DNA from: a virus
IMG/VR virus record: IMGVR_UViG_3300035670_010555
Location: 64,001-128,000 of that record
Length of the DNA stretch: 64,000 nucleotides
Reading direction: 5' to 3' (one strand)
The notes beneath the pieces were generated by a model, which saw only the letters and a list, made by a program, of their open reading frames with translations, did no database searches and was not told the DNA's origin. The position numbers were made by a program, and so were the translations under genes. Positions 1-25,980 of this stretch are shown here, piece by piece; the stretch's first letter is position 1, and each line of letters starts with the position of its first letter.

Positions 1-407
1 GGTATTAACCCACAATGGGACAAGCCGGCATCAATCCAATAGTAATAATCATATGATTTATCTTCATTCCACCACCAGTGGAATTTGGAGTATTGTATTT
101 CGATGCACCTATCAGACTTTTTAGATTCTTCAATATTTTTATATTGATTTATCAAATCCTTAAATTTAGTTTGAGAAATATCAAAAATCTGAAATTTTAA
201 TTTTTCGGGGGATATTTGATTTTCTTCATAAAAAAATTTTTGTAGTGACTCTATTTCTCGATTTGAGGTATAACACAAAAAATCGGCATCAGTCATTTTG
301 AGTAATGACAATAGACTAAACCTGTAGTGTCCTCCCCTATTAATTCTTCCACCATATTCGGTACCATAAAGGTCACTATATATTGAAGTTATAAATTTAA
401 CTTTCAT
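1..407 (-). CDS. Partial (runs off left edge) HtrL/WlaTC-like glycosyltransferase
   Basis: Not in ORF track. ATG at 407 overlaps the stop of 397..1143 and reads MKVKFITSIYSDLYGTEYGGR...QYSKFHW...YDYYYWIDAGLSH. The WIDAG motif is typical of HtrL/YibB-like proteins. Confidence 0.55.
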   Translation of the reverse strand, partial: MKVKFITSIYSDLYGTEYGGRINRGGHYRFSLLSLLKMTDADFLCYTSNREIESLQKFFYEENQISPEKLKFQIFDISQTKFKDLINQYKNIEESKKSDRCIEIQYSKFHWWWNEDKSYDYYYWIDAGLSHCGLI

Positions 408-1143
408 AGTAAAATTTGCGATGTTCGTTTTTATCTTTTATTTCCTGTACTTGAAACTGGTCCATAAACTCGTGGGGTATTTTTATTGGGGTCCATCGAT
501 TCCAATTATAAGTTTGCATATACCAATTGTTATATACTCCTTCAGAAATATTTGAATAATTTGTTTTCTGAGGTGCAATTGGTAGTATGGGACAATAACT
601 CTGATACTTGTCAACTATAAATTTGTAGGTATAGTCATCTAAAGCAAAAAAGTATTCTCCACTATTTGTAAACGCGGTCAATGCTATGTCAAATATTTTG
701 TCGTAAATTGATTCGTCGTAAATTACCATGTTTGCACCATAAATCCCTCTAGCTTCAGGAGGAGCTTCAGGTGTGTTTGTCATGTCAAATAGGATATCAT
801 AATCCTTACTCACATTGATTGGTCTATTTTGTGTTGGGGACAAATTGAACATGGCAAACTCCAAGTTCGGACATGATTCTTCGATTTTAGTTAACAAATC
901 TTTTGCATAAGGCATAAATCCGCAATCATCCTCAATCATCATTACTCTTGGGTATTTCTTTTCCTTAGCAATTTTAATAATCTCAAAAGTGGATTTGGTA
1001 ATGCCCATATATGAGTTTGTGTCTATTGCCGAAAACCTTTCAAAGTCCCACCCAATATATTCCATTTCCTTGGTTATAGATTCCATCCTATCTGGTCTCC
1101 TATCCAAGTTTATTACAAACTTTGGTATTTCTGAAAAGTTCAT
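397..1143 (-). CDS. Glycosyltransferase family 25-like protein
   Basis: FVINLDRRPDR, ERFSAID and MIEDD motifs characteristic of GT25. Confidence 0.8.
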   Translation of the reverse strand: MNFSEIPKFVINLDRRPDRMESITKEMEYIGWDFERFSAIDTNSYMGITKSTFEIIKIAKEKKYPRVMMIEDDCGFMPYAKDLLTKIEESCPNLEFAMFNLSPTQNRPINVSKDYDILFDMTNTPEAPPEARGIYGANMVIYDESIYDKIFDIALTAFTNSGEYFFALDDYTYKFIVDKYQSYCPILPIAPQKTNYSNISEGVYNNWYMQTYNWNRWTPIKIPHEFMDQFQVQEIKDKNEHRKFYYES

Positions 1144-2405
1144 TAACTAACGTGATTGTGGTTTAGTTGCCCTGTTAATCTATCACACCAACCTTTGGAC
1201 ACCGAGTGAGGCCACACAACCCAATGTGTTGGTAATACTGTTGTTGGGAATTCTCTCCACACCTTACAATATTTGTCAGGGTCTCTAAAAAAACCGGCAA
1301 TTTCATTCTTGTCCGCATCTCTTCTATAAATGGTTTCATCGTTTGGACCGTGGAATGCGACCACCCAAAAATCGTAATCCTTTTCAGGAACGCTTGAATA
1401 CCCAATATCAATACAATGTTTATAAATGGTTGAAAAACTTTTTTTCCATTCTTCTTCATCTTCAATAACAGGACTTGGCGCGTATTTTTTATCCAAACAA
1501 TGTTGGTCAACCGCTCTTTTTTCAAATAATAAACCAGCGTATCTTTCGTAATCCCGTAATGTTCTCACAGTTCCGAATCCGTAAGGACCATCATGACCTT
1601 CTTGAGTTTCACCATCCATACCAAATAATTTTCTATTTGTTAGGTGAGATTTTTTATTTTTTTCACCCCACGTTTTATCGTCATCCCATTGTTTGGTTCT
1701 GCCTTTACGAGTGTATTCGTGATACACAACAGGAATGTGTGGGTGGAACAAATCGTAACCCCAAGTATATGCTCTCGCGGCAATTGAAATTTCTTCTCCG
1801 TGAAAATAGTATTCAGGATTGTGTTGTACTTCAGTTGAGAATTGTCCGAGTGTGAAACAGAAGTGAGCTGAATAGAATCTTGCGGTAACAGGTTTTGTCA
1901 TCTCTTTCCATCCTGGTATTGTTTCAGGTAAAAAGAATACCGCTCCTTCAGGAATAAATCTATCAAAAGCCATTCTCCAAGCGTCTTGTGCACGACCTGC
2001 AGGGTCATTTTCAGGATCGAATGAAGGAACATAACCTGTCAACAAAGGTTTCTTATATCCATCCTTTTGTAATCCTTTAATCATTTTGATTAATACATCA
2101 TCCCAATCTTTGATGAATCTCATATGAGAATCAATTTGAAGTGTGTATGTTTCACCATCATATAGTTGTTGAGTTAAATTTCTTGCCCAACAAACTCCTT
2201 TAGATTCTTGATATGGAATGTCCAATATTTTGAATCGTTTATCTTTTCTAAACTCATCTAAATTATCGAATCCATCTGATTCACTGTATTGTCTCGCAAT
2301 TCCGAAAACCAAGTTATTCGGTTTTTTTGCATTTGAAATCATGTCTTTTAATGTCGGAACCAACTGTGGATCTCTGTAGGAAGCAATTTGAATAAAAATT
2401 TTCAT
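1143..2405 (-). CDS. GT60-like polypeptide alpha-N-acetylglucosaminyltransferase (Skp1-hydroxyproline GlcNAc-T / PF11397-like)
   Basis: IFIQIASYRDP, GVCWAR, LQIDSHMRF..WD, FHGEEI...RAYT.GYD, HEY motifs. Confidence 0.85.
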   Translation of the reverse strand: MKIFIQIASYRDPQLVPTLKDMISNAKKPNNLVFGIARQYSESDGFDNLDEFRKDKRFKILDIPYQESKGVCWARNLTQQLYDGETYTLQIDSHMRFIKDWDDVLIKMIKGLQKDGYKKPLLTGYVPSFDPENDPAGRAQDAWRMAFDRFIPEGAVFFLPETIPGWKEMTKPVTARFYSAHFCFTLGQFSTEVQHNPEYYFHGEEISIAARAYTWGYDLFHPHIPVVYHEYTRKGRTKQWDDDKTWGEKNKKSHLTNRKLFGMDGETQEGHDGPYGFGTVRTLRDYERYAGLLFEKRAVDQHCLDKKYAPSPVIEDEEEWKKSFSTIYKHCIDIGYSSVPEKDYDFWVVAFHGPNDETIYRRDADKNEIAGFFRDPDKYCKVWREFPTTVLPTHWVVWPHSVSKGWCDRLTGQLNHNHVS

Positions 2406-2430
2406 TTGAAATATATTTTATCCTAAAAGT

Positions 2431-2461
2431 AAAAAACCCTCCGACAAAGTGGAGGGTTTTT
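2431..2461. terminator. Intrinsic terminator, potentially bidirectional
   Basis: AAAAAACCCTCC-gacaaagt-GGAGGGTTTTT. Confidence 0.8.
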
Positions 2462-2486
2462 GAATATATATTAATGTTTTTTATTT

Positions 2487-3320
2487 TTAAGATGAAGATG
2501 GTGTAGGTGTCATAGTAGGAGTTTCGGTTGGAGTACTTGTTGCTGTCTCACTTGGTGTGTTGGTTGGAGTTTCAGTTGGAGTCTCGGTAGGAGTTTCACT
2601 TGGAGTTCCTGAAGGTGTATTGGTAGGAGTCTCGGTAGGAGTTTCACTTGGAGTTCCTGAAGGTGTATTGGTAGGAGTTTCGGTTGGAGTCTCGGTAGGA
2701 GTTTCACTTGGAGTATTAGTAGGAGTTTCGGTTGGAGTCTCGGTAGGAGTTTCACTTGGAGTTCCTGAAGGTGTATTGGTAGGAGTTTCGGTAGGTGTAC
2801 TTGTTGGAGTTTCTGTAGGAGTATTAGTAGGAGTCTCGCTAGGAGTATTTGTTGGAGTTTCTGTAGGAGTACTTGTTGGAGTTTCGCTAGGAGTATTCGT
2901 TGGAGTTTCAGTTGGAGTTGGACTCGGTGTTTCTGTTGCGGTCACGCTCGGAGTTGGGGTCGATGTTTCAGTATTAGTTGGAGTCGGTGTAGGTGTTCCA
3001 GTTTCTGTTGCAGTCACGCTCGGAGTTGGAGTATTTGTAGGGGTTTCAGTTGGTGTCATTGTTGGAGATGGCGTCAGCGTTGGAGATGGTGTTGGTGTGT
3101 TAGTTGCAGAAATTGGAGGAAACGCACCTTCATCTACAAATGAAACTGCAGATTTGAATGCCGATGCAATTGTATAGGTCCCATCGATAACCCAAATATT
3201 TTTCGTTTGATTAGGTAATAATTCAACTTGATAATCCCAAAAAGAATCATCACATCTTCGATAACTAAAGTTTACTACAGTTGAACCTGTATTTGTAAGA
3301 ATGTATTTACTGCAAGCCAT
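2487..3320 (-). CDS. Mucin-like Pro/Thr-repeat protein with small Cys-containing N-terminal domain (putative virion surface protein)
   Basis: About 70 aa N-domain ([13 protein letters not shown]...YRRCDD) followed by about 200 aa of [12 protein letters not shown] repeats. Confidence 0.8.
2500..3105 (-). repeat. Degenerate 12-bp-based tandem repeats encoding (T-P-T/S-x)n
   Basis: Units such as GTAGGAGTTTCG / GTTGGAGTCTCG / CTTGGAGTTCCT, with higher-order near-identical blocks. Confidence 0.9.
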
Positions 3321-3346
3321 ATATTTTTATATTTTTTTTCGCTAAA

Positions 3347-3559
3347 TTATACTGGAGGAAAAACTCCGTCGTTAATCAAAGATATTGATGGCTTGAATAA
3401 TGGTGCCACAGTATACGTCCCGTCAGTTACCCAAATATTTTTTACTTGGTTTGGGGATAGCTGGATTTGATAGTCCCACATCGAATCGTCACATCTTCTA
3501 TAACTAAAATTTACTGATGTTGATCCTGTATTTGTAAGTGTATATTTACTACATGCCAT
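3347..3559 (-). CDS. Tail-less paralog of the 2487..3320 N-terminal domain
   Basis: [31 protein letters not shown] is nearly identical to the N-terminus of 2487..3320. Confidence 0.8.
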   Translation of the reverse strand: MACSKYTLTNTGSTSVNFSYRRCDDSMWDYQIQLSPNQVKNIWVTDGTYTVAPLFKPSISLINDGVFPPV

Positions 3560-3622
3560 CGTTTATCTCATTTAATTTATAAATACAGCAAACAGTAGTA
3601 TTTTCCATTTTTTTTCCAAAAA

Positions 3623-3931
3623 TTATGAAGGTGTCACTGTTGGTGTCAACGTATTGGTCGGGGTTATAGTTGGTGTTGGCGTTTCTGTTGACGATGGGGT
3701 ATTTGTTGGGGTTATAGTTGGTGTTGGCGTTGGTCCTGAAATGACAAGAGAATACGTTGTACCATATGTTGGAACATAACAATTGTAAGTACCCAAATAG
3801 TAATCTGATAGATATTCGAATGGAAATACTTGAGTACCTAAATCAATAGTACCTCCAGATTCTGGCAAATACGTTACATTGGTTGTTAGACCACTCAAAT
3901 TATTACTTAATATTCTTACTCCAATTACCAT
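3623..3931 (-). CDS. Small protein with C-terminal Pro/Thr repeat
   Basis: Beta-rich N-domain then GPTPTPTITPTNTP... Confidence 0.7.
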   Translation of the reverse strand: MVIGVRILSNNLSGLTTNVTYLPESGGTIDLGTQVFPFEYLSDYYLGTYNCYVPTYGTTYSLVISGPTPTPTITPTNTPSSTETPTPTITPTNTLTPTVTPS

Positions 3932-3942
3932 ATCTATATATA

Positions 3943-4509
3943 TTAACAGATACCTTTGTTTATTATCAAAGTTCCACTTAATTGTACGAAAATTGCTCCA
4001 TCAGAAATTGTGAATTTATTACCTGCTGGTGGTATGGTCAATGCCCTATTACCGTAAACATGGTCCCCAACTTCTAAAGTGTTGAACGGTTTTGTTGTAA
4101 AGACCTTAACATTCGCAGGATTTGCAATCATATTAACGGACTCACAAACGTTTTGATACCAACCTCCACCTCTTAGATTTCTTTCATATATAGGAGAAGG
4201 AGTCACGGACGGTGTTGGAGTTTCTGTTGGAGTAGGAGTTTGTGTCATTGGTGTTGGTGTAACACTTACCGTTGGAGTGACTGTTGGAGTTACTGTAGGT
4301 GTCGGAGTTGTGCTTGGGCATAATCCAGTATTTATAATATCCAAAGGGCCACTGTAACTTTCTTGAGCCAAATATTCGGCACAAACAAACTCTGTGGAAA
4401 GTGGTGATATTGAAGATACACTAATTATACCCGTACACCCTGTCCATATATAAAACCCATTTTGGGTACTATTATAGTTAGTTATTCGATATTGGTTACA
4501 AGTACTCAT
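3943..4509 (-). CDS. Pro/Thr-linker protein with Cys-containing N-domain
   Basis: MSTCNQYRITN...WTGC N-domain resembling that of 2487/3347, central (TP)n linker, C-terminal domain. Confidence 0.75.
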   Translation of the reverse strand: MSTCNQYRITNYNSTQNGFYIWTGCTGIISVSSISPLSTEFVCAEYLAQESYSGPLDIINTGLCPSTTPTPTVTPTVTPTVSVTPTPMTQTPTPTETPTPSVTPSPIYERNLRGGGWYQNVCESVNMIANPANVKVFTTKPFNTLEVGDHVYGNRALTIPPAGNKFTISDGAIFVQLSGTLIINKGIC

Positions 4510-4532
4510 ATTTTAACAGTCCATGTTTTGAT

Positions 4533-7079
4533 TTAGTTTGTTGGTGTAACTGTAGGAGTGATAGTTGGTGTTGGTGTCGGAATAACAGGTAAAATTAAAT
4601 CGACAGGACAAATACAACCAATTAAATTATAGGAAAAAACGTCAAACGCAACTACAATTTCTCCAGGTAATAAAACTGGAGATAAATCAAATTGGTGTTG
4701 ATGTTGTTCTACGTTTATAGTTTCTTCCCCATAGAAAACAGTTCCTAATGAACCGTAAGCCGCTCCCGAAATGATATAATCACAGTTAGCAATCGCTGGT
4801 GACGTAAAATCAGGAAGATTCCATAATACCAATTTGAATTTTGTGGACTCCGTCAGTTCTACCTGTAAATATTGTGTTGTGATAGGACACGTTGGTGTTT
4901 GTGTTGGTGTCCCAGTAGGTGTATTCGTCGGTGTTTCAGTCGGTGTAACTGTCGGAGTAACTGTTGAAGTTTCTGTAGTTGTCGGAGTCGGTGTTTCAGT
5001 CGGTGTAACTGTCGGAGTAACTGTTGAAGTTTCTGTAGTTGTCGGTGTCGGTGTTTCAGTCGGTGTAACTGTCGGAGTAACTGTTGAAGTTTCTGTAGTT
5101 GTCGGTGTCGGTGTTTCAGTCGGTGTAACTGTCGGAGTTTCTGTAGTTGTCGGTGTTGGTGTTACGGTTGGAGTAGGCGATGGTTCAATTAACTCATAAG
5201 TTAAATCATTGCTTGGAACAACAATAGTACAATTAGGACACTCAGGATTCAACAATGTATACTTGTCTTTCAAAATTCTAAAATTGTGTTTGACCTGCGA
5301 AGCGTTTAATGGTTCAACATACATTCTGAACGAGCTTATGTCACCAATCATACTACCACCGAAATATTCTTCTAACTTAATATGTGTGGTTAATCCTGAA
5401 TAAATTGTATTATCTAAATCATGAGTTGTTAAACATTCAGGGTCTTGCTGGTAAGTGATACCACTAATAGATTCAGGACACCCTCCTGAAAATGTCAAGT
5501 TATCTTTAAGACCTTGAGTTCCTCCACCTAACGAAATATTATATCCAACACCAATTTGTTTTTCTCTTTCAACATTCAACAATCTTGGGATAATTTCTTC
5601 AAAGTTTTCTGCAACCATGAACAATTTACCATTAACAAAAATTTTGAGAGTACCCAATCTGTATATTTGTTCCTCAGTCCAATTGTCGTTGAAAGTTACA
5701 ATTTCTGTTGTTGCAGGATCGTATGGTAATTCATGAGTTAGTGGAGGTTCAATCAAGCTAACACTATTGTTTGCTGGTGTTGCAGTATATATCGTGTCAA
5801 CAAGAAGTCCTAACCCACCCTTCTCATAAAGGTCACAAGTGTCGAGCCATTGATTTCTTTGGAATACGGCATCGATTTGAACCCAGTGTTCTACATTTAT
5901 ATACGGTGTATTTTTACACTCATCGAAAATACCTCTTGTTGAACACCATTCTGTAACTGAAGTTCCTGTTTGATATGTTAACCCTGTAAGACAAGTTCCA
6001 CTTGTTTCACAGCCACCAGTAATCCTATATGTTTTTATACAAACTCTCGGATTTCCTGTATCACCACTTAACCTTATTGATAATCCATTGGAAACGCCAT
6101 CATATAATGGATCTTTCTCAGGATATTGGGCATTTACCTCACATTCACAATTACATCCACATGAACAATTTTTTGATGTCCCCCCTGAAATCTGATAAAC
6201 TTGAAGACAAGTTGATGCGGTATTAGCAGAACTAGCACATCCACAAGTATGCATACAAGTTAAACCTGAAGTTACTCTTGTATATCCAGTATCTTGTTTT
6301 GGTTCTCCATCCGCATAATGGTAAAATTTGTTTTCAGCCCGAGAACCCATATAAAAGAATGTTCCTTTATTATCAGGGTATCGATTGTTAAGACCAACAC
6401 TTGTATCTCCCGTCCATCGGTATCTCAACATAAATTCTGCAGTCCAACCTAATGGTACTCTTTGTGGGAAAATCTGATAGTCGTATCCAGGTATTTTATA
6501 AAATCCTTGGAAAAATCCTCCATCTAATCTTGCAAAATATCCGACAGGACCTCCATCAGTCGCGTAATTCAAATCATAACTGTATGAATTATCGTTCCAT
6601 AATCTAGTTTGTGTTGTTGTAAACCCTGTAATAGGGTGGAGTTTCATTCTCCTATCGTATTTGTATCTACTATATTTGTCGGTGTTGTTTGTGTAAAGTC
6701 CTGTTGTTATTTGGATTGTCTCTCCTGACATTTTTTTAACCAAACCATTATCAATACCAGTTAAACCTACATCACACAAGTCGGTAACCTTTGGACAAAA
6801 GTTAGGATCTATGTCGTCAGGATTCCAATAATTTTCAGAAACAATTACATCATTATCAAAAGTACATACCCCTGATTGACATATCGTCGTACCTGTACTA
6901 TTGAAATCAAATTTGAATGGCATTCTATTTCCATCGTCCTCACCTATTAATAAAGGTGAAAAAATTACTTCTTGGTCATAGTCCTTCTCATCCGAAGCCA
7001 AACAGATATCGGTAATTTCATTGACAGGTTTAATCCCCCAACGTCTAAAATTGTACTGATTAATATTTTGATATGCCAT
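4533..7079 (-). CDS. Large LamG/ConA-like domain protein with Cys-rich insert and Pro/Thr repeats (putative virion fibre/adhesin)
   Basis: LKIFVNGKL and IGDISSFRMY..PLNASQVKHNF are LamG-like; CSCGCNCEC cluster; about 100 aa PT tract. Confidence 0.7.
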   Translation of the reverse strand: MAYQNINQYNFRRWGIKPVNEITDICLASDEKDYDQEVIFSPLLIGEDDGNRMPFKFDFNSTGTTICQSGVCTFDNDVIVSENYWNPDDIDPNFCPKVTDLCDVGLTGIDNGLVKKMSGETIQITTGLYTNNTDKYSRYKYDRRMKLHPITGFTTTQTRLWNDNSYSYDLNYATDGGPVGYFARLDGGFFQGFYKIPGYDYQIFPQRVPLGWTAEFMLRYRWTGDTSVGLNNRYPDNKGTFFYMGSRAENKFYHYADGEPKQDTGYTRVTSGLTCMHTCGCASSANTASTCLQVYQISGGTSKNCSCGCNCECEVNAQYPEKDPLYDGVSNGLSIRLSGDTGNPRVCIKTYRITGGCETSGTCLTGLTYQTGTSVTEWCSTRGIFDECKNTPYINVEHWVQIDAVFQRNQWLDTCDLYEKGGLGLLVDTIYTATPANNSVSLIEPPLTHELPYDPATTEIVTFNDNWTEEQIYRLGTLKIFVNGKLFMVAENFEEIIPRLLNVEREKQIGVGYNISLGGGTQGLKDNLTFSGGCPESISGITYQQDPECLTTHDLDNTIYSGLTTHIKLEEYFGGSMIGDISSFRMYVEPLNASQVKHNFRILKDKYTLLNPECPNCTIVVPSNDLTYELIEPSPTPTVTPTPTTTETPTVTPTETPTPTTTETSTVTPTVTPTETPTPTTTETSTVTPTVTPTETPTPTTTETSTVTPTVTPTETPTNTPTGTPTQTPTCPITTQYLQVELTESTKFKLVLWNLPDFTSPAIANCDYIISGAAYGSLGTVFYGEETINVEQHQHQFDLSPVLLPGEIVVAFDVFSYNLIGCICPVDLILPVIPTPTPTITPTVTPTN
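4927..5137 (-). repeat. 60-bp tandem repeat (about 3.5 copies) encoding TPTPTTTETSTVTPTVTPTE
   Basis: Sequence lines 4921-5160 repeat in register almost exactly. Confidence 0.9.
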
Positions 7080-7087
7080 AAACTAAT

Positions 7088-9777: not shown

Positions 9778-10998
9778 ATGTCAAAAATCAAAGTTTTAGT
9801 TGTTCCTTCTGACCGTTCAGGTGTTGGTAAATTCCGTTCGGTCGATCCACACATTTTTCTTCAAAATCAATATCCAGATGAGTTTCACGTAGACATTATT
9901 TATGAACCTCCATACGAGGATGTAAATTTTTGGACACAATACCAAATAGTAGCATATCACAGAAGTATTGGTCAAGATTTTGAAAAGGCAAATAGATTAA
10001 TTCAAATGTTAAACTCTTTAGGAGTTGTTACTGTTTGTGATATTGATGACTATTGGATGCCGGGTAAAGAACATCCAATTCACGATATTATTCGAGTTAA
10101 TAAAATTAATGAAAAGATTGTCGCTAATCTAAAAGTTTCTAAGTTTGTGACTACGACAACTGAAATATTTGCTGATGAAATTCGTAAGTACAATAAAAAC
10201 GTTATCGTTTTTCCAAATGCAATTAATCCTAATGAAGCTCAGTTCAAAGAAAAAACTGAAGAATCAGATAAGGTACGTGTTGGTTGGCTTGGTGGGTCTT
10301 CTCACTTACACGATATCCAACTTTTAGACTCAGGATTTTCCAAGATATTACCCCTCAAAGATAAGGTACAGTATGTATTGTGTGGATTCGACACTAGAGG
10401 AACTGTGACTGAAATCAACGCTCAAACAGGTGAACAAAATAAAAGAAATATTTTACCGGCAGAAACTGTATGGGCTCAATATGAAAAAATATTCACACAA
10501 AACTATAAGATAGTATCAGAAGGATATAAAAACCATCTTCTTAAATACAATCAAGAAGAATACCGTGGGGATAATGATGAATCATACCTTCGAGTTTGGA
10601 CAAAACCTGTAACAGGATATGCCAAAAACTATTCCAAGTTCGATGTATCTTTAGCTCCAATCAAAAACACAATGTTTAATAGAATGAAGTCTCAACTTAA
10701 AGTTATTGAAGCAGGGTTCTATAAAAAAGCAATTATAGCTTCTAATATTGGACCTTATACTATCGACCTAAAACATTGTATGGAAAATGGTAATTTTGTA
10801 GATGGAAATGCTATCTTGATTAATGAAGCTAGAAATCATGCCGATTGGGCAAAATTCATTGAAAAATTGGTGAAGAATCCAAATCTTGTCAAAGATATGG
10901 GTGAAAGGTTATATGAAACCGTTAAAGACAAGTATGACTTGAACAATGTAACTAATGATAGAAAACAATTTTATATCGATATCGCAAACAAATCATGA
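9778..10998 (+). CDS. GT-B (GT4-like) glycosyltransferase
   Basis: DIDDYW, RVGWLGGSSH, DVSLAP...FNRMKSQLKVIEAG, IIASNIGPY. Confidence 0.8.
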   Translation: MSKIKVLVVPSDRSGVGKFRSVDPHIFLQNQYPDEFHVDIIYEPPYEDVNFWTQYQIVAYHRSIGQDFEKANRLIQMLNSLGVVTVCDIDDYWMPGKEHPIHDIIRVNKINEKIVANLKVSKFVTTTTEIFADEIRKYNKNVIVFPNAINPNEAQFKEKTEESDKVRVGWLGGSSHLHDIQLLDSGFSKILPLKDKVQYVLCGFDTRGTVTEINAQTGEQNKRNILPAETVWAQYEKIFTQNYKIVSEGYKNHLLKYNQEEYRGDNDESYLRVWTKPVTGYAKNYSKFDVSLAPIKNTMFNRMKSQLKVIEAGFYKKAIIASNIGPYTIDLKHCMENGNFVDGNAILINEARNHADWAKFIEKLVKNPNLVKDMGERLYETVKDKYDLNNVTNDRKQFYIDIANKS

Positions 10999-11696
10999 TT
11001 AACATTCCAATCACCAAACTTTTATTTATAGACATAGAAACTGTAGGAGTTCATCCTGATTTTGAAACATTAGAATCTGTGAATCCCGAGTTGTCTTTTC
11101 AATTCAAAAATTATTTTGATTGGTTTCAAAAAAGATTTCCTGAAGATGCAGATAAAGGTCATTCTCAGATGTTTGTCAATCGTTCGGCATTAGTACCCGA
11201 ATTTGCCAAAATCGCATGTGTAAGTGTTGCATTTGTTCTTGAAAGTGGTGAAGTCAAAGTACAATCATTTAGTAACAAAAATGAGAAAGATTTGTTACAA
11301 GATGTTCAAAAACTTTTACGTAGAGTCGGAGAGTTAGGATTTTTTCTTTGTGGTCACAATGTTAAAGGATTTGACATTCCTATGCTTGCAAAAAGAATGA
11401 TTATGAACGGTCTTCTACCACCAAAAATATTACCAGGTCATGACACTAAGCCATGGGAAATTAAGGCATTAGACACAAAAGAACTTTGGCAATATGGTGG
11501 TTATGGGTCTATCGCATCTCTTGAATTGATGTGTGTTTGTATGGGGGTAGAATCTTCCAAAAATATGGAAGTTACTGGAAATAAAGTACACGAGGCGTAT
11601 TGGGTAAATGACGATATTAAAGGTATTGTAGAATACTGTGAAAAAGACGTGTTAGTATTAATTGATGTTATAAAAAAAATTACAAATTTAGTATAA
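10995..11696 (+). CDS. PolB-like 3'-5' exonuclease (DEDD)
   Basis: FIDIETV, GHNVKGFDIP, YCEKDV motifs. Confidence 0.85.
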   Translation: MINIPITKLLFIDIETVGVHPDFETLESVNPELSFQFKNYFDWFQKRFPEDADKGHSQMFVNRSALVPEFAKIACVSVAFVLESGEVKVQSFSNKNEKDLLQDVQKLLRRVGELGFFLCGHNVKGFDIPMLAKRMIMNGLLPPKILPGHDTKPWEIKALDTKELWQYGGYGSIASLELMCVCMGVESSKNMEVTGNKVHEAYWVNDDIKGIVEYCEKDVLVLIDVIKKITNLV

Positions 11697-12313
11697 TGGA
11701 AAACTCAAACATAAATCTGAACCAAGATATTTGGAAACAAATACAAGAAACATTTGACCAAATAAAACAAGATGCGGGTGTTGAACCTGAAGAAGATTAC
11801 ATGAAAGAATTGGAAAGTCTTTTGGGAATGTCTGTTGATGAATTGAATGAAAGTCACATGACCATGATGAAGACTAGATCATTAGGAGTTGAGTTAGTTC
11901 ATGAAGATGCAAAAGTCCCATCTTATGCTTACCCATCAGATTCAGGGTTTGATTTACGTTCAACTGTGGAAATAATCATACCACCATTTGGTAGAGCTTT
12001 AATACCTACAGGTATTAAATTGTCAATTCCTGAAGAGTATGAAATTCAAATTCGACCCAAGAGTGGACTGGCATTAAATCAAGGGCTTACCGTATTAAAT
12101 ACTCCTGGAACCGTTGACTCGGGATATGTGGGAGAGATTAAAGTTATTGTCTTTAATACTAATAACGCATCCGTTACAGTGTCCAAAGGAATTAAAATTG
12201 CTCAAGCGGTTTTATCTCCAGTAATGTGTGGAAAATATGTTTCCATAGAACTAATGGATAAAGTTGGGAATAAAGATAGAATGGATAATGGATTTGGAAG
12301 CACTGGACTATGA
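11696..12313 (+). CDS. dut: Trimeric dUTPase with acidic N-terminal extension
   Basis: SGFDL, RPKSGLA, GTVDSGYVGE, IAQ, GFGSTG motifs. Confidence 0.9.
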   Translation: MENSNINLNQDIWKQIQETFDQIKQDAGVEPEEDYMKELESLLGMSVDELNESHMTMMKTRSLGVELVHEDAKVPSYAYPSDSGFDLRSTVEIIIPPFGRALIPTGIKLSIPEEYEIQIRPKSGLALNQGLTVLNTPGTVDSGYVGEIKVIVFNTNNASVTVSKGIKIAQAVLSPVMCGKYVSIELMDKVGNKDRMDNGFGSTGL

Positions 12314-13935
12314 TAACTGTAGGATATTCGACTAGAGAATCTAAACCTGAATTTATAGAGTATCTTAGAAAAAGTTCGGGGTTCAAAAAACTCGAAGTCA
12401 TTGAAAAAGTAAATGACGGTAAAAAGTCTCTTGCTCAAGTTTATAATGAAATACTATCTGAGTCAAAAACCGACATAGTTCTTCTTTGTCACGATGACAT
12501 TTATTTTGACACCCCCGCTTGGTACAGTAAACTCCTTAAACATTTCGAAAAAACTGATTTCGGGATTATAGGAATGGCTGGGACAACATCGATGCCTGCA
12601 GGTGGAATGTGGTGGGAAAATAGGAAAAGAATGGTTGGTATTGTTAATCATGAAAAGGATGGAAAAAAATGGGAATCAAAGTATGCGGATGCTGTTGGTA
12701 ATACGGTTCATGAAACGGTTATTGTAGATGGTTTATTTATTGCCGTACATAAAAAAAGAATTAAGAGGTCATTCAATGAAGAGTTTAATGGGTTTCACTT
12801 CTATGACATTCCATTCTGTTTCGAAAATCATTTGGAAGGTGTGAAAGTTGGCGTTATCACTAATATTAGAATGACTCACAAGTCAATTGGAGAAACTAAT
12901 GAACAATGGGAAGAGAACCGTAAAATCTTTGCGGAAAAGTACAAATCTTATCTACCACTTAAATTACCTATCGACTCAAACAAAAGACTTAAAGTTTTAA
13001 TCAGTTGTTTGTTCTTTAGAACATTCACAGGTTCAGAATTATATGTTTATGAGTTGGCTAAAAACTTAATGAAACAAAACTGCGATGTGACAGTAGTATC
13101 ACAAATTGGAGGTCCACTAACTGACTTGGCGAAAAAACAAGGTATCAAATGTGTTCCATTTGAGCAAGCACCAGGTTTCAAATTAGGTGACGGTAAATGG
13201 GGAGTTCAAACTGAGAATGGGATACAAACATCCCAACCGAATGTCATGTATCGTATAGGTCAAGTTAATTTTGATATTATTCATATGCAACATAAACCTG
13301 TTGCAGAAAGAATGATTCAGTTTTATCCTGAAATAGATAAGATATATTCAATACACTCTGAAGTGATAGAATTGGAAGACCCAATCAAACATGAATCGAT
13401 TAAGAAATACATCGCTATCAGACCTGAAATAAAAGAACATATTGTTGATAAGTTTGAAATCGACGAAAATATGGTTGAAGTAATATATAATCCTGTAGAT
13501 AAAGAAAAATTCAAATCCAAATCAGTAAAGGAAGAGAACTATGTGTTATTTGTTGGAACAATAGATTATCTACGCAAAGAAACAATTATGGATTTAATTG
13601 ACTATACCGTAGATAATGGTAAAGAACTTTGGTTAGTCGGTGAAGACAAGTCAAACTATCTTCCACAAATATTAACCAATTCTCACGTTAAACATTTTCC
13701 TCCAACATGGAATGTTGAGTCATATGTTCAAAAATGTTCCGAAACTGCGGGTATTCAATTAGGCCGTACAACTATAGAAGGATGGATGTGCGGAAAACCA
13801 AGTTGGATTTACAAAGTTGATTCGGGAGGATTTATTCTTTCCAAAGAAAAGTTTAATCCTCCATCAGATATAGAAAAATATTATTCTGTAAATGTTGCAA
13901 CACAAATAATAGGAGAATATAAAAAAGTATTATAA
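12310..13935 (+). CDS. Bifunctional GT2-like + GT4-like glycosyltransferase
   Basis: N-half has CHDDI, VDGLF, FHFYD; C-half has TGSELY, IYNPVD, GRTTIEG. Confidence 0.8.
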   Translation: MITVGYSTRESKPEFIEYLRKSSGFKKLEVIEKVNDGKKSLAQVYNEILSESKTDIVLLCHDDIYFDTPAWYSKLLKHFEKTDFGIIGMAGTTSMPAGGMWWENRKRMVGIVNHEKDGKKWESKYADAVGNTVHETVIVDGLFIAVHKKRIKRSFNEEFNGFHFYDIPFCFENHLEGVKVGVITNIRMTHKSIGETNEQWEENRKIFAEKYKSYLPLKLPIDSNKRLKVLISCLFFRTFTGSELYVYELAKNLMKQNCDVTVVSQIGGPLTDLAKKQGIKCVPFEQAPGFKLGDGKWGVQTENGIQTSQPNVMYRIGQVNFDIIHMQHKPVAERMIQFYPEIDKIYSIHSEVIELEDPIKHESIKKYIAIRPEIKEHIVDKFEIDENMVEVIYNPVDKEKFKSKSVKEENYVLFVGTIDYLRKETIMDLIDYTVDNGKELWLVGEDKSNYLPQILTNSHVKHFPPTWNVESYVQKCSETAGIQLGRTTIEGWMCGKPSWIYKVDSGGFILSKEKFNPPSDIEKYYSVNVATQIIGEYKKVL

Positions 13936-15092
13936 TGAAAATAGGTATCATAGGAGCCGGAAGATTAGGTCTTTCATTTGCTCTTTTGTGTAAAAAGGCG
14001 GGATATGATGTAATTGTTTCAGATAAACGTGAAGACTATGTTTATAATTTGAATCAGAATATTTGTAAAACAAATGAACCATTGATTCAAAAAATGTTGT
14101 TTGAACTTAATAGTTTTAGCGCAACTACAAACAATGTTGAAATTATTGAAAATTCCGACATTATATTCACCTTTGTTTCAACTCCTTCCACTACTGAAGG
14201 GAATTATGATACTTCCGCAATCTTCGAAGTTGCAAACGATTTTTTTGAAGCATCCAAATTAGATATTTCAATCTTCAATAAAAAATTTGTTATTGGTAGT
14301 ACAACAAATCCTGGTGATGTTGAACAAATTCAAAATAAACTTTCTATGTTTAGCATTCAAGTATCTTATAACCCACAGACTGTTGAGGATGGGGAAATGA
14401 TTAAAGGAATTCAAGAATCAGATATAATTTTGATTGGGACCGAATATCAAGAGTTAGGAAATGAATTAGTTCAAATTTATAGTCAAATTCAAACTACTCC
14501 TGTCAATGCTCATATTATGTCTTCAAAAGCTGTTGAGATTACCAAACTCGGTATCAATAGTTTTATTACAAATAAAATGACTTTTGCAAATATGATGGGG
14601 GATATCTTAACAAAGTCAAATTTATTAAATGAAGTTGATTCTGTTTTGAATGCAATCGGAGGAGATAGTCGAATTGGAAAAAAACATATGAAATACGGGT
14701 TTGGATTCGGGGGGGAATATCTACCAAAAGACAATCGAACTTTAAGTCATTATGTTAATGAACTTGATTTGAAACAAAATCTACCTTTAACAGTTGACGA
14801 ATTTAATAATGAACATTCTAATTTTCTCAAAAACTTTTTCATTCAAAAAAATCCTGACAAAAGTATTCCATTTGTTATGAACTATCTAACACATAGAAAA
14901 GGAACGGATATTTTGGAAGAGTCACAACAATTAAAATTGTGTTTGGCTTTACTGGAAGAGGGATATTACTTAAATGTAATTGAGTCGGATTCTATCATAA
15001 AACAATTATTATATTTAGGAGAACAATTCGATGGAAAATTGAAATTTTATAAACAAGGGGCTTTTCCTGAAGGATATGTAATAAACTTATGA
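13935..15092 (+). CDS. UDP-glucose/GDP-mannose dehydrogenase family protein with degenerate active site
   Basis: GIIGAGRLG, FVSTP, GSTTNPG, DSRIG, GFGGEYLPKD (canonical GGxCxPKD). Confidence 0.8.
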   Translation: MKIGIIGAGRLGLSFALLCKKAGYDVIVSDKREDYVYNLNQNICKTNEPLIQKMLFELNSFSATTNNVEIIENSDIIFTFVSTPSTTEGNYDTSAIFEVANDFFEASKLDISIFNKKFVIGSTTNPGDVEQIQNKLSMFSIQVSYNPQTVEDGEMIKGIQESDIILIGTEYQELGNELVQIYSQIQTTPVNAHIMSSKAVEITKLGINSFITNKMTFANMMGDILTKSNLLNEVDSVLNAIGGDSRIGKKHMKYGFGFGGEYLPKDNRTLSHYVNELDLKQNLPLTVDEFNNEHSNFLKNFFIQKNPDKSIPFVMNYLTHRKGTDILEESQQLKLCLALLEEGYYLNVIESDSIIKQLLYLGEQFDGKLKFYKQGAFPEGYVINL

Positions 15093-15820
15093 TAATAAAT
15101 TTTGTTGTTTGCGTTTGGAATGCAGAAAAATATATTAAAAATTGTATTAGAACTTTGAAGTCTCAGCAAGATAAAGACTTCAAAGTTTTTATTATTGATG
15201 ACATGTCTACAGATAATACAGTAGAAATTACTAAATCACTTATTGAGGGTGATGAAAGATTTAATTTAATCATCAACACCGAAAAAAAATTTAAGCTAAA
15301 AAATTTAGATGAATTAATTCCAACATTTGATGATGACGATATTGTTATTGAATTAGATGGTGACGATTTTTTACTAAACACAGATGTCGTATCAGACATT
15401 AGGAGAATCTATTCAGATGGAAAAGTTTGGTTGACTAATGGTTCATTTATGTATTCAAGTGGTAATCAAGGATTCTCAACTAAATGCAATCCTGAAACTA
15501 TTCGAAAAGATGTTTTTACATTTTCCCACTTACGTACTTGGAAATCTTTTTTATGGAAATCAATTCCGAAAGACTATCTCAAAGATGATGATGGAGAATA
15601 TTTCAAATCCGCAGCAGATGTCGCATATACGTTTTCACTTTTAGAATTAGCGGGAGAAGAGAATTATAGATTTTTACCTAAACTATATTACGTTTATAAC
15701 GAACAATCGCCGTACAACGACCATAAACCAGGAAGTGCCACTGGTGGAGGACATCGAGAACAAGAAAGATGTTCAAACATAATACGTAATAAACCAAAAT
15801 TAAAAAAATTAATTAGATGA
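15089..15820 (+). CDS. GT2 glycosyltransferase
   Basis: NAEKYI..CI, IDDMSTD, LDGDD. Confidence 0.85.
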   Translation: MIINFVVCVWNAEKYIKNCIRTLKSQQDKDFKVFIIDDMSTDNTVEITKSLIEGDERFNLIINTEKKFKLKNLDELIPTFDDDDIVIELDGDDFLLNTDVVSDIRRIYSDGKVWLTNGSFMYSSGNQGFSTKCNPETIRKDVFTFSHLRTWKSFLWKSIPKDYLKDDDGEYFKSAADVAYTFSLLELAGEENYRFLPKLYYVYNEQSPYNDHKPGSATGGGHREQERCSNIIRNKPKLKKLIR

Positions 15821-16635
15821 GTAATTTAATTTCATGTAATTTGATGGGTGGATTGGGAAACCAACTTTTTCAAGCGGCGCACGCTGTCGCTCAAGGAATT
15901 ACACATAATCGGGACGTAGTTTTTGTTCCAAGGTCTTGGACTCCACTACAAGGAAGACAAACTGAAAACTACGTGAATAATATTTTTCGTAATCTTAAAT
16001 TTGTAGATAATATTGATGGGTTTGAAAGAATTGTGGAAGGACCTTGGGAATATAGTGAAGTTCCTGTTAAAGACGGTAATATTGTTTTTGACGGATATTT
16101 TCAAAGTTCGAAAAACTTCAGTCCCCATTTCGATAGAATTCGTAACATTTTTTCCCCCACGGATGAATTTATTTCAGAAATGTTGGAAAAATATCCCGAG
16201 CTAAAACAAGAAAATACAGTTTCACTTCACGTAAGAAAAGGAGATTTCTTAATGAATCCCGATATCCATCCGTCAATTGGCCTTTCATATGTGAAAAGAT
16301 GTTTTGAACTTTTAGGGGAAACAAATCACATATTTGTATTCAGTGACGATAAATCATGGGCGAAAGAAAACCTACAAATGGTTAACTCAACATTTGTGGA
16401 TGAGGAAGATTATAAAGAATTATGGTTAATGTCTTTGTGTAAAAATAACATTATCAGTAATTCATCATTTTCATGGTGGGGTAGTTTTTTGAATAAAAAT
16501 CCTGAAAAGAAAGTTTTTGCGCCTTCAATATGGTTCGGTCCTAGAGGTCCAAGAAATTTCGTGGATATATTCCAACCGGAGTGGACAGTAATAAATGTAG
16601 AATATAAAGACGGTAACTTAGAGTATGTGTCTTAA
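15817..16635 (+). CDS. GT11 alpha-1,2-fucosyltransferase-like protein
   Basis: GGLGNQLFQ, GYFQS, HVRKGD, FSDD, NSSFSWWG. Confidence 0.9.
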   Translation: MSNLISCNLMGGLGNQLFQAAHAVAQGITHNRDVVFVPRSWTPLQGRQTENYVNNIFRNLKFVDNIDGFERIVEGPWEYSEVPVKDGNIVFDGYFQSSKNFSPHFDRIRNIFSPTDEFISEMLEKYPELKQENTVSLHVRKGDFLMNPDIHPSIGLSYVKRCFELLGETNHIFVFSDDKSWAKENLQMVNSTFVDEEDYKELWLMSLCKNNIISNSSFSWWGSFLNKNPEKKVFAPSIWFGPRGPRNFVDIFQPEWTVINVEYKDGNLEYVS

Positions 16636-16650
16636 TCTTAGGAAAAAAGT

Positions 16651-17469
16651 ATGGTAAAAATTAACATGTTATCTAGAAACTTTGCACATGACAAAGGTTC
16701 TACCGCAAATAAAGCTCCACAAACAATCGAATGGTGTTTCAATAGTTACGACAATCCAATTTCAGTATATTTGGATAATGATTTATTCAAAGCAATACAA
16801 GACCACAAAAATGATGGTGGGTCTAAGAAAAAATTTCTTTGGATTATAGAATCTCGTAAATTTGATGGAGGTGCTATCGATAGTATTAAAAATAACTTGG
16901 ACGATGTATTAAATACATTTGAACAAATTTGGACTCATAACGATGAGTTATTATCCCTAAACCCAAAATTCAAATGGACACCAGCTTACGGGAGTTACAT
17001 TAAAGACTTCGGAATTCATCCTAAAACTAAGATGGCGTCAATGATTACTTCAGACAAAAGATGGACTCGTCAGCATGAAGTCCGTCATGATTTTGCAATG
17101 CAAAACAAAGATAAAATCGATGTATATGGTAGAGGTATTAATGAAATCCCGAATAAGGAAATTGGATTAAAGGATTATCGTTTCTCATTTGCAGTAGAAA
17201 ATGATACGTACGACACCTACTTCACTGAAAAAATACTTGATTGTTTTGCCACAGGCACTATACCTATTTACATGGGGACTAAAAAAGTTGTGGACTATTT
17301 TAATACCGATGGAATAATCTTTTTTGAGGGTACATTTGACATTTCACAACTTACAGAAGAACTTTATTTGTCAAAAATTGACGCAGTAAAAGATAACTTT
17401 GAAAGAGTACAAAAATATAGTGTTCTTGACGATTGGATTTTTGAAAATTATTTAACTCACTATGTCTAA
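16651..17469 (+). CDS. GT10 alpha-1,3-fucosyltransferase-like protein
   Basis: YRFSFAVEN...YFTEKI.DCF..GTIPIYMG. Confidence 0.8.
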   Translation: MVKINMLSRNFAHDKGSTANKAPQTIEWCFNSYDNPISVYLDNDLFKAIQDHKNDGGSKKKFLWIIESRKFDGGAIDSIKNNLDDVLNTFEQIWTHNDELLSLNPKFKWTPAYGSYIKDFGIHPKTKMASMITSDKRWTRQHEVRHDFAMQNKDKIDVYGRGINEIPNKEIGLKDYRFSFAVENDTYDTYFTEKILDCFATGTIPIYMGTKKVVDYFNTDGIIFFEGTFDISQLTEELYLSKIDAVKDNFERVQKYSVLDDWIFENYLTHYV

Positions 17470-18172
17470 AACTTGTCTTATAAATCAACCTGCAGGAATT
17501 GGAGATGTTCTTTTTCTTCAAAAGTTTGTTGATTTGAAATTATCTGAAGGATTTGAAGTTATATTCCCCGTTAATCCAAACTTAGTTTTTCTTAACGATT
17601 ATATCAGAAAACCGAAATTAAAATTTGTATCAACTGATAGTGAGTTTGTGTATAAAGGACACTTTCACAATAGTCAAATAATTAAAACACCTGATTTTGA
17701 ATTTTACCCATTTAATATTGCGGATAGATTTATTAACGGATCTTGTATGGAAGCTAAATATTCTTTTGCAGGTTTAGATTATCAAAATTGGCAAGACCAT
17801 TTGACGTGGGAAAGAAACACCGAAAAAGAGAATTATATATTCTATGAGGTTTGCAAATTAAAAGATGGTGATAAATATTCTGTTGTATCAAACACATGGG
17901 GGACATTACCACATTCATCCAAGAGAGACATTCAGACAAACCATAATTACCCAACAATATACGTACAATCAATAGATGGATACACTATATTTGATTGGGT
18001 AAAAGTGTTAGAAAATGCAACTGAAATTTATATGATTGACACATCATTCAATTATCTTATCGAGAAGTTAGATTTGAAAGCAGAAAACTTATATTTGTTT
18101 TCTAGATTTACTCCACCTAATTTTTCACATATTATTAATCTATTCAAAAAAAATTGGATTTTACAAAAATAA
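17462..18172 (+). CDS. Putative glycosyltransferase (GT-B-like)
   Basis: QPAGIGDV and IDTSF motifs; context. Confidence 0.5.
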   Translation: MSKTCLINQPAGIGDVLFLQKFVDLKLSEGFEVIFPVNPNLVFLNDYIRKPKLKFVSTDSEFVYKGHFHNSQIIKTPDFEFYPFNIADRFINGSCMEAKYSFAGLDYQNWQDHLTWERNTEKENYIFYEVCKLKDGDKYSVVSNTWGTLPHSSKRDIQTNHNYPTIYVQSIDGYTIFDWVKVLENATEIYMIDTSFNYLIEKLDLKAENLYLFSRFTPPNFSHIINLFKKNWILQK

Positions 18173-18173
18173 A

Positions 18174-19157
18174 ATGAAAAAAAAGTTTTTAATCACAGGA
18201 ATCACGGGTTTTGCAGGTCCTAATTTGGCAAAACTATTATTAAAGGAAGGGCATGAAGTACATGGTGTTATTCGTTGTCCCAACGGTAGACAAACAGATC
18301 TTTTGGACATTTTGACGATGGAAGAATTAGATTCCATAGTTTTTCACAATTTGGATTTAAGAATGTTCAGTAGTGTACAAAGATTGTTTTCGAATAACCA
18401 ATTCAATGGTGTGTTTCATTTGGCTGCACAGTCACATCCACCAACAAGTTTTTTAGACCCAATACTAACGTTCGAAGAAAACGTTTCGGCAAGTATGAAC
18501 ATAATTACATGTTTGGAAAAGACCGAAACCAAATTGATGTTTTGTTCAACATCTGAGGTGTATGGTGATACTTGCAAAGATAGAGGTATTTTGAAGGTTA
18601 CGGACCCACTCACTCCACACAATCCTTACGCAGCATCAAAAGCTGCAATAGATTTATATCTTCAAGAAAGATTTAAGAATGGCTTTGTCAAAGGATTTAT
18701 CACAAGAGCATTTTCACATACTGGTCCTAGAAGAGGGTTTAATTTTTCAATATCCTCAGATGCATATCAAATCGCTAAGATGGTTTTAGGGAAACAAGAA
18801 AAGGTCCTTAGAATCGGAAATCTCAATACTGAGAGAGTTGTTATAGACGTTAGAGATTGTGTAAACGCTTATTATAAGCTAATGATGACTGAAAAATCCA
18901 ATGGAAAAGTTTTTAATATTTGCGGAAAAGATGTTTGTAAAATGCAATATTTTACTGACAAACTAATTGAATCTTCAGGTATCCCGTATGATGAAATCGA
19001 ACAACGGATTGATGAAAAGTTATACCGACCTATTGACATTCAAGTCCAAATTGGTGATTCAACTGAAGTTACAGATATTACAGATTGGAAAATAGAATAT
19101 ACCATAGAACAAACTATGAGTGATTTATTAAATTATTGGATAAACAAATTAAAGTAA
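18174..19157 (+). CDS. GDP-mannose 4,6-dehydratase / GDP-6-deoxy-mannose reductase family SDR
   Basis: LITGITGFAG, HLAAQSH, STSEVYG, PYAASK, HTGPRRG. Confidence 0.85.
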   Translation: MKKKFLITGITGFAGPNLAKLLLKEGHEVHGVIRCPNGRQTDLLDILTMEELDSIVFHNLDLRMFSSVQRLFSNNQFNGVFHLAAQSHPPTSFLDPILTFEENVSASMNIITCLEKTETKLMFCSTSEVYGDTCKDRGILKVTDPLTPHNPYAASKAAIDLYLQERFKNGFVKGFITRAFSHTGPRRGFNFSISSDAYQIAKMVLGKQEKVLRIGNLNTERVVIDVRDCVNAYYKLMMTEKSNGKVFNICGKDVCKMQYFTDKLIESSGIPYDEIEQRIDEKLYRPIDIQVQIGDSTEVTDITDWKIEYTIEQTMSDLLNYWINKLK

Positions 19158-19158
19158 T

Positions 19159-23805: not shown

Positions 23806-23806
23806 A

Positions 23807-24415: not shown

Positions 24416-24416
24416 A

Positions 24417-25975: not shown

Positions 25976-25980
25976 AAAAA

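Follow-up and report, generated by a model that had tools for sequence, protein, structure and literature searches.

We analysed 64,000 nucleotides of viral DNA, hereafter the window, which are bases 64,001–128,000 of the 169,854-bp IMG/VR viral contig IMGVR_UViG_3300035670_010555. At the start of the window, a GT60-like glycosyltransferase (GT) is encoded on the minus strand beside several proteins with long Thr/Pro (PT) tracts. The best-supported reading of this gene island, which we hold to be probable, is a phage-encoded system for the O-glycosylation of PT tracts. The contig (CheckV completeness 56%) is part of an uncultured freshwater jumbo phage of ~320 kb, because complete, near-identical relatives measure 321–326 kb; the median protein identity of one of them (G003) to the contig is 93%. 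The island is transcribed in the order of genes for proteins of 848, 188, 102, 70 and 277 amino acids (aa), a hairpin, and then the genes for the GT60-like enzyme, a GT25-like enzyme, a 293-aa open reading frame (ORF) and a 558-aa HtrL_YibB protein. The enzyme and its PT-tract neighbours are as follows.

1143..2405, minus strand: 420-aa GT60-like (PF11397) glycosyltransferase, with a GT-A catalytic domain (residues 1 to ~325), a DSH motif (92–94) and a ~90-aa C-terminal alpha/beta domain.
4533..7079, minus strand: 848-aa PT protein, with a 625-aa N-terminal part, a PT tract (626–760), a ~110-aa C-terminal beta domain and a short PT tail.
3943..4509, minus strand: 188-aa PT protein, with a small Cys-bearing N-terminal domain, a PT tract (59–111) and a C-terminal domain.
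3623..3931, minus strand: 102-aa PT protein, with a 57-aa N-terminal domain and a PT tail.
3347..3559, minus strand: 70-aa tail-less protein, a paralogue of the N-terminal domain of the 277-aa protein.
2487..3320, minus strand: 277-aa PT protein, with a 64-aa N-terminal domain; the remaining 213 aa, up to the stop codon, form a Thr/Pro tail.

The sequence-only reading had taken the 420-aa protein for a GT60-like enzyme related to the polypeptide GalNAc-transferases, and both profile and structure comparisons bear this out. The protein belongs to PF11397 (E 3.9e-68, 230.9 bits against a cut-off of 21, profile positions 2–44 and 95–351 of 352) and matches the phage family phrog_24687 with E 3.5e-164. 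An AlphaFold2 (AF2) model built from a 43-sequence alignment has a GT-A fold (pLDDT 95, pTM 0.90), while single-sequence folding gave a pLDDT of 35. Comparison of the model with known structures, using Foldseek and VIA-align, returned polypeptide GalNAc-transferases for all of the top 29 PDB entries (Z 18.8–22.1, root mean square deviation ~3.4 Å over ~272 residues), followed by generic GT-A enzymes at Z ≤17. D92 and H94 of D92-S-H94, the DxH motif of GT27 and GT60, and also H229, are invariant in 43 homologues. The likeness to GT27 is confined to the catalytic domain in the structure alignment, at 10–14% sequence identity, and phmmer against the PDB sequences gave no hit at E ≤1. Membership of GT27 was rejected, since Pfam found neither a Glycos_transf_2 nor a ricin domain at E ≤0.1. 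Residues 325–413 form an additional alpha/beta domain, which is missing from the Burkholderiales homologues. The enzyme has no signal peptide and no transmembrane (TM) segment. Characterised GT60 enzymes act on Thr-rich mucin peptides, where they attach alpha-GlcNAc to Thr in a reaction that requires Mn2+ (PMC3769586). We propose that the 420-aa protein is an initiating polypeptide O-N-acetylhexosamine (O-HexNAc) transferase. The family is very abundant: close homologues number more than 7,000, and grouping at 50% identity gives 4,528 clusters. Among its environmental members are giant proteins of 1300–2460 aa with two to four tandem GT60-like domains (P0122, P0123, P0125 and P0132), and two loci (L087, L088) carry two GT60 genes in tandem.

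The four PT-tract ORFs and the tail-less paralogue that had been called between 2487 and 7079 are all present there on the minus strand. In the largest of them, the 848-aa protein, the N-terminal part contains a Cys-rich region and a possible ConA/LamG-like part, and all neighbours in the Atlas are viral, some with Laminin_G_3, which we take as a lead only. Its PT tract is encoded by a 60-nt tandem repeat (3.5 copies, 99% identity) and its orthologues in relatives, which occupy the same position, range from 662 to 1504 aa. The 188-aa protein has an orthologue of 77% identity in G003. The gene of the 277-aa protein contains a 108-nt repeat in 3.4 copies, and the orthologues of this protein measure 334–672 aa with 141–229 PT residues. 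Tandem DNA repeats of this kind, which we describe as young, underlie the PT tracts; the "VGVSVGV" ORFs antisense to them are artefacts of the PT-encoding repeats. The 102-aa protein appears to be a shortened form of orthologues that have 420–607 aa in relatives. Between 3320 and 3960, the 102-aa and 70-aa ORFs resemble products of recombination or truncation within PT repeats, because the corresponding orthologues of relatives have 420–607 and 334–672 aa. The tail-less 70-aa form is recurrent, with comparable viral proteins of 61–71 aa in Atlas clusters of 212 and 73 members. The PT cassette appears to have been reshuffled through its repeats.

Further PT proteins are encoded outside the island, one at contig positions 167,240–168,319 and one in the head and packaging module of the window.

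54258..55505, minus strand: 415-aa PT protein, with a small N-terminal domain and a 193-residue PT tract.

The gene of the 415-aa protein sits between the portal, terminase and major head genes, and the protein, alike in layout to those of the island, is likely a further substrate. PT tracts on the contig add up to 700 residues. In the pooled tracts, Thr makes up 41.6% of the residues, Pro 22.1% and Ser 8%, where the proteome background is 7.5, 4.2 and 7.7%, and 76% of the Thr residues are adjacent to a Pro. The seven PT proteins of a complete relative are spread over three sites, and all but one of them consist of a Cys-bearing N-terminal domain of 60–95 aa followed by the PT tract. Searches of the PT proteins against Pfam, NCBIfam and PHROGs found nothing except phrog_15511, which aligned to the PT tract alone, and the Atlas returned only unnamed viral clusters and the Laminin_G_3 lead.

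PT genes are linked to GT60 genes beyond chance. In close relatives, whose enzymes are 83–96% identical to that of the window, PT ORFs lie directly upstream on the same strand at every one of the 53 loci whose upstream flank reaches 3 kb or more, and downstream at 2 of 77. The cassette of these relatives is hypervariable in gene number, content and PT length (43–1218 residues per locus), and in some of them the transferase set downstream has been swapped. At distant loci, defined by enzymes 41–55% identical to a marine homologue, PT ORFs are found upstream on the same strand in 31/59 cases and within 8 kb on either side in 37/59.

We also scanned whole genomes for a (Thr-Pro)4 codon pattern, with the reversed pattern as control. 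Of seven further large phage records that carry GT60, six proved rich in PT tracts, and these span two unrelated capsid lineages (pattern/control counts: XacN1 283/5, RAS14 157/11, Xoo-sp13 72/1, G003 53/3, G004 101/2, G001 41/0, G002 0/0). Ten PF11397-negative large phages, which include the nearest capsid relatives of the window and the RaK2-like relatives of XacN1, gave no pattern match in nine cases and 2 against 5 control matches in the tenth. The co-occurrence gives a Fisher p of 6e-4, computed over lineages that are not independent. From the opposite direction, PF11397 is carried by 10 of 44 viral contigs chosen solely by a (TP)6 pattern, a figure that includes at least one contig of the antisense (Gly-Val)n type (G017); a homologue occurs in 4 of 50,697 phage records. 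As judged from predicted genes, the pairing of GT60 with PT tracts is widespread in environmental jumbo phages.

The Xanthomonas jumbo phage XacN1 can be compared in more detail. Its ORF334 is a GT60 homologue, 47% identical to the enzyme of the window, and is followed by ORFs of 286, 246 and 546 aa whose sizes and order, the only features compared, parallel the 293-aa, GT25-like and HtrL genes. XacN1 likewise encodes many PT-tract proteins. These tracts are on the sense strand in ORF180, ORF190, ORF325 and ORF384, of which ORF325 (3313 aa) lies beside the baseplate wedge, 3 kb from the GT cluster. XacN1 differs in its RaK2-like capsid lineage, its high GC content, a carbamoyltransferase in the cluster, and the placement of its PT tracts in giant proteins scattered over the genome. 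Since it belongs to a different capsid lineage, XacN1 is a second, independent association of GT60 with PT tracts. Virions of XacN1 contain at least two periodic acid–Schiff (PAS)-positive proteins, and its authors proposed ORF328 or ORF334 as the glycosylating enzyme (PMC5852040). This is indirect support for virion glycosylation in a phage with a GT60 homologue.

A similar linkage is seen in bacteria. Across 64 loci from genomes and metagenome-assembled genomes (MAGs), where the GT60 gene was located by BLAST, strict PT-tract ORFs account for 11/328 genes within three genes of the GT60 homologue and for 1/350 further out, in at least nine taxa. The odds ratio is 12 with p = 0.002, for a cut between ≤3 and >3 genes that was picked post hoc; an earlier split into immediate neighbours and the rest gave p = 0.18. 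In Ralstonia, Paraherbaspirillum, Achromobacter and Paraburkholderia, the GT60-like gene lies within a type VI secretion system (T6SS) cluster containing TssE, TssF, TssA, TagF and TssM. One example is the chromosome of Ralstonia sp. 25C (L377:7950-13131), where a PF11397 gene (E 3.6e-78) is part of the T6SS cluster, and further Burkholderiales loci of this type are L340, L360, L361, L368, L380, L384, L387 and L394. Three genes from the GT60-like gene, Burkholderiales encode a VgrG spike that ends in a long tail of (TP)n or (EEPPPS)n. The VgrG with a (TP)n tail is possibly a glycosylated T6SS spike. VgrG resembles the phage proteins in being assembled in the cytoplasm and exposed later, which fits a soluble cytoplasmic transferase, and we suggest that these loci are probably a bacterial T6SS counterpart of the GT60–PT system of phages. 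Other PT-tract neighbours in bacteria are a LamG-type protein, a crAss-muzzle-domain protein and sedolisin-type proteases.

Several observations weigh against the PT tracts as acceptors. The close relatives are too related to count as independent observations, and 22 of the 59 distant GT60 loci have no PT ORF within 8 kb. In a clade of large phages with 30% GC (L094-L109, L120, L147, L150; G002) there is no PT ORF within 10 kb of the GT60 gene, and G002, a 181-kb GT60-positive contig of 54% completeness, lacks PT tracts altogether. Conversely, 34 of the 44 viral contigs chosen by PT pattern, including five of six complete genomes, lack PF11397; PT tracts therefore do not need a GT60-like enzyme. 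The DNA pattern scan is strand-blind, and its match in G017 is an antisense (GV)n repeat and hence a false PT call. Within the island itself, a terminator hairpin divides the PT genes from the transferases, and the latter abut a DNA polymerase gene. Finally, tblastn of the 630-aa N-terminal part of the 848-aa protein against 50,697 phage records found no match. The PT proteins have no homologues in cultured phages by tblastn, and so we infer their place on the virion only from layout and context.

The phages with 30% GC form natural negative cases for the substrate hypothesis; in them the GT60-like gene is followed by other transferases, including a 577-aa GT25-like fusion. G017 is of note in its own right. 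It encodes a tail-fibre-like protein of 735 aa with long (Gly-Val)n repeats (L285:10332-12539, minus strand), whose C-terminal segment, with a Cys start and a His-Asn end, resembles a Hint/intein-type autoprocessing domain, and a distant GT60-family gene lies immediately 3' of this gene.

In the most serious rival to PT-tract glycosylation, the island glycosylates other phage proteins, such as those of the capsid and tail, and the PT tracts are extended spacers in hypervariable fibre genes that share an accessory hot spot with the transferases. We consider this unlikely. In its favour are the 34 PT-pattern contigs without GT60, the GT60 phages without nearby PT genes, the terminator between the two gene sets, and the complete relative in which only one of the three PT sites adjoins GT60. 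The precedent of mycobacteriophages points the same way, as their glycosylated proteins are those of the capsid and tail tube (as cited in PMC12619734). Against it, the bias for Thr over Ser and the TP spacing fit the acceptors of characterised GT60 relatives, co-occurrence extends over two phage lineages and several bacterial phyla, and the major head protein showed no alternative acceptor rich in Ser or Thr.

On balance we favour O-glycosylation of the PT tracts. The expectation that GT60 and PT genes would travel together is borne out by close relatives, by an unrelated jumbo-phage lineage and by bacteria; it fails at the 22 distant loci and in G002. For the sequence-only reading as a whole, enzyme family and fold, co-occurrence and the terminator speak in its favour, while the linkage is not universal and most PT-pattern viral contigs lack GT60. 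The roles that it assigned to the appendages, as a shield against proteases or desiccation, in adhesion, or as bait for Bacteroidota receptors, are speculative.

Beyond the hairpin, the transferase genes continue towards and across the edge of the window.

2432..2461, minus strand: intrinsic-terminator-like hairpin that separates PT genes from transferase genes, with an 11-bp stem, a T-tail and a fold z-score of -3.5.
397..1143, minus strand: 248-aa GT25-like transferase (PF01755, phrog_2835), a candidate extending enzyme.
1..407, minus strand: HtrL-like ORF; positions 3–407 encode the first 135 residues of a 293-aa ORF, the rest of which lies beyond the edge of the window.
L003:15857-17533, minus strand: 558-aa HtrL_YibB protein (PF09612), just outside the window and next after the 293-aa ORF.

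The hairpin, previously placed at 2431–2461, is real and spans 2432–2461. As regards the GT25 label, the 248-aa ORF matches PF01755 above the cut-off (E 2.7e-7, 31.1 bits against 24), and the match is restricted to residues 7–47, on profile positions 3–43 of 199. The ORF also matches the glucosyltransferase family phrog_2835 (E 4.5e-6). For the ORF at 3–407, the label HtrL-like is fair. The part within the window has no Pfam hit, and the 293-aa ORF is a distant paralogue of the 558-aa HtrL_YibB protein (BLASTP E 8e-6). The 558-aa protein matches PF09612 with E 4e-22 (79.5 bits against a cut-off of 24.1, profile positions 2–256 of 267). It was ruled out as a YibB orthologue, with a score far below the NCBIfam equivalog cut-offs. 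Two small ORFs and then a family-B DNA polymerase follow beyond its gene. The conserved core of the cluster is the pair of GT60 and 558-aa HtrL-like genes, present at 79/80 close and 56/70 distant loci; the GT25-like gene is found at 68/80 and 12/70. The GT60 and HtrL pair also occurs on a TARA Oceans metagenome contig, together with methyltransferase and sulfotransferase genes.

Divergent from the island, a second gene set would supply sugars and further transferases.

9778..27075, plus strand: 17-kb nucleotide-sugar and glycosyltransferase operon.

The operon encodes about six soluble glycosyltransferases, among them GT4-like, GT2_5+GT4 fusion, GT2, GT11 and GT10 enzymes, a UDP-Glc/GDP-Man dehydrogenase, a GDP-mannose 4,6-dehydratase, an epimerase/reductase and a DegT aminotransferase, as well as two FkbM methyltransferases, a hexapeptide acyltransferase and a Zn-dependent alcohol dehydrogenase, with an exonuclease and a dUTPase interleaved. 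Its gene content differs even from that of the 93%-identical relative. It encodes no membrane proteins. Nowhere on the contig does a protein reach three TM segments, and the complete 326-kb relative encodes a single protein that does, with four. The phosphoglycosyl transferase family Bac_transf (PF02397) is absent from three of three genomes, in a search whose control was positive in 9/14, and neither a phosphoglycosyl transferase nor a flippase, polymerase or ligase was found on the contig or in the complete relatives. Judged by its predicted genes, the phage synthesises unusual nucleotide sugars and encodes roughly a dozen soluble transferases without a lipid-carrier route, a combination that points to stepwise assembly on a soluble acceptor.

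This gene content bears on a further alternative, in which the transferases remodel envelope glycans of the host (lipopolysaccharide (LPS), capsule or exopolysaccharide), either for superinfection exclusion or to keep progeny from re-adsorbing to lysed cells. HtrL/YibB takes its name from an Escherichia coli protein that has no assigned function and whose gene is located in the LPS-core cluster, and GT25, GT10 and GT11 are typical families of lipooligosaccharide and LPS enzymes. A survey of jumbo phages reads polymorphic GT clusters in this way (PMC7824862). We regard envelope remodelling as distinctly improbable here, given the lack of lipid-linked machinery just described and of any polytopic membrane protein on the contig and in the complete relatives, the absence of a membrane anchor from the GT60-like enzyme, and the identity of the nearest structural relatives of the initiating enzyme, which are peptide glycosyltransferases.

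The position of the cluster beside DNA polymerase, exonuclease and dUTPase genes could instead suggest that the transferases add sugars to hypermodified bases of the phage DNA, as in T-even and other phages that glycosylate 5-hydroxymethyl-pyrimidines. The GT25-like ORF also weakly matches phrog_842, a beta-glucosyl-hydroxymethylcytosine alpha-glucosyltransferase (E 2e-4). This explanation is very improbable. The sole gene of the thymidylate synthase (TS) family passes the ThyA equivalog cut-offs (326.8 against 325 bits; 321 against 108) and the complete relative has just one TS-family copy, so no dCMP/dUMP hydroxymethylase was found. The 17-kb fucose-type and amino-sugar operon, moreover, far exceeds the needs of known DNA glycosylation. 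A Tet_JBP search gave no match, but no control gave a match either.

For PT-tract glycosylation, we infer the acceptor, the donor sugar, the order of steps and the virion location as follows. The island would carry out a cytoplasmic, mucin-type protein O-glycosylation, in which the soluble GT60-like enzyme starts the glycan. With a host UDP-sugar as donor, it would attach a HexNAc to the many Thr residues of the PT tracts while the infected cell is synthesising the phage proteins. Stepwise extension and modification of the glycan on the protein would then fall to the GT25-like and HtrL-like enzymes, probably joined by the GT2, GT4, GT10 and GT11 enzymes of the neighbouring operon. Extension would draw on nucleotide sugars made by the phage through 6-deoxyhexose/fucose-type, amino-sugar and uronic-acid pathways. 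The resulting structures may be rigid stalks or tails clad in glycans, which accessory fibre or decoration proteins would bear and the small N-terminal domains would hold in place.

Comparison with known systems indicates what is shared and what is particular to the phage. The protist GT60 alpha-GlcNAc-transferases, TcOGNT-2 of Trypanosoma cruzi and Gnt2/Gnt1 of Dictyostelium, have PF11397 and the DxH metal motif in common with the phage enzyme, beside which Thr-rich, Pro-flanked, acceptor-like tracts are encoded. Dictyostelium Gnt1 is a soluble cytoplasmic enzyme. The enzyme described here differs in being a phage and bacterial protein of 420 aa with the additional C-terminal domain and no Golgi membrane anchor. 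It is also paired with an HtrL-like gene, at the frequencies given above, and is known here from its sequence and model. The GT27 polypeptide GalNAc-transferases of animals and Toxoplasma are the best structural match of the catalytic domain (Z ~22), with the same DxH motif, and the proposed logic of dense O-HexNAc on Thr/Pro repeats followed by extension is also theirs; low sequence identity and the lack of a Glycos_transf_2 hit and of a ricin B lectin domain set the phage enzyme apart.

Among viruses, chloroviruses and Mimivirus use a large nucleotide-sugar gene set and many soluble GTs, without endoplasmic reticulum, Golgi or lipid carriers, to coat capsids or fibrils. The likeness extends to a GDP-mannose dehydratase, an aminotransferase and an acetyltransferase next to the many soluble GTs. 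They are giant viruses of eukaryotes whose GT families and acceptors are different, with N-linked glycans in the case of PBCV-1 Vp54, whereas here the virus is a tailed phage. In mycobacteriophages, according to Freeman et al. 2023 as cited in PMC12619734, phage GTs O-glycosylate the structural proteins of the phage in the host cytoplasm, and the glycans described there are at the C-termini of capsid and tail-tube subunits. Here, by contrast, the candidate sites are long tandem PT tracts carried by accessory proteins, initiation would fall to a GT60-like enzyme, and the sugar-synthesis operon is much larger than in that account. The citing paper, on a "moraphage", concerns a different lineage and mentions glycosyltransferases only generally (PMC12619734).

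The phage itself has T4-type major head, portal and terminase genes within the window. By capsid, its nearest cultured relatives are Microcystis phage Mel-JY01 and Flavobacterium phage immuto, joined by two uncultured huge phages, and a megablast search of positions 1–7200 against the phage collection gave no match. The GT60 homologues in bacterial assemblies that are closest to the window enzyme (68–70% identity) are on low-GC contigs binned into Saprospiraceae MAGs, a weak hint at a Bacteroidota host. The major head protein (40744–42534, minus strand, 596 aa) matches the T4 gp23-type profile only over residues 270–573, which leaves an N-terminal extension of ~270 aa outside the match. At 57476–59488 on the plus strand, a 670-aa protein matches the phage ATP-dependent protease family phrog_4871 nearly end to end (E 4.7e-243).

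Virus-encoded glycosylation of virions is established in giant algal and amoebal viruses and, since 2023, in mycobacteriophages, and is thought to be rare in phages. The new element here is the pairing of an initiator like GT60 and the polypeptide GalNAc-transferases with mucin-like Thr/Pro repeats. A literature search on GT60 in bacteriophages, PT-rich O-glycosylated phage proteins and glycosylated VgrG found no description of such a system, which is not proof of novelty.

More speculatively, the GT60-like and HtrL-like genes may represent a widespread and hitherto undescribed prokaryotic form of cytoplasmic mucin-type O-glycosylation that coats the Thr/Pro tails of later-exposed proteins, phage fibres and decorations as well as T6SS VgrG spikes. 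In this phage, with GT25, GT11, GT10 and a GDP-fucose pathway, it would yield fucosylated glycans like N-acetyllactosamine (Lewis/H-like), and the eukaryotic GT60/GT27 initiators would have arisen from this pool of prokaryotes and phages. We offer this wider proposal tentatively and think it rather doubtful.

The GT60-like family is the prokaryotic and viral counterpart of the enzymes with which protists and animals initiate mucin O-glycans. If PT-tract glycosylation is correct, the family would offer a clue to how GT27 and GT60 arose. It would also provide a soluble, bacterial-type enzyme for O-GlcNAc/GalNAc mucin mimetics. XacN1 is a cultured system that allows a direct test of the idea. Glycan-coated, "mucin-like" appendages would be common among abundant freshwater jumbo phages, where their glycans would bear on adsorption, stability, grazing and immune recognition, and the same chemistry may decorate T6SS spikes.

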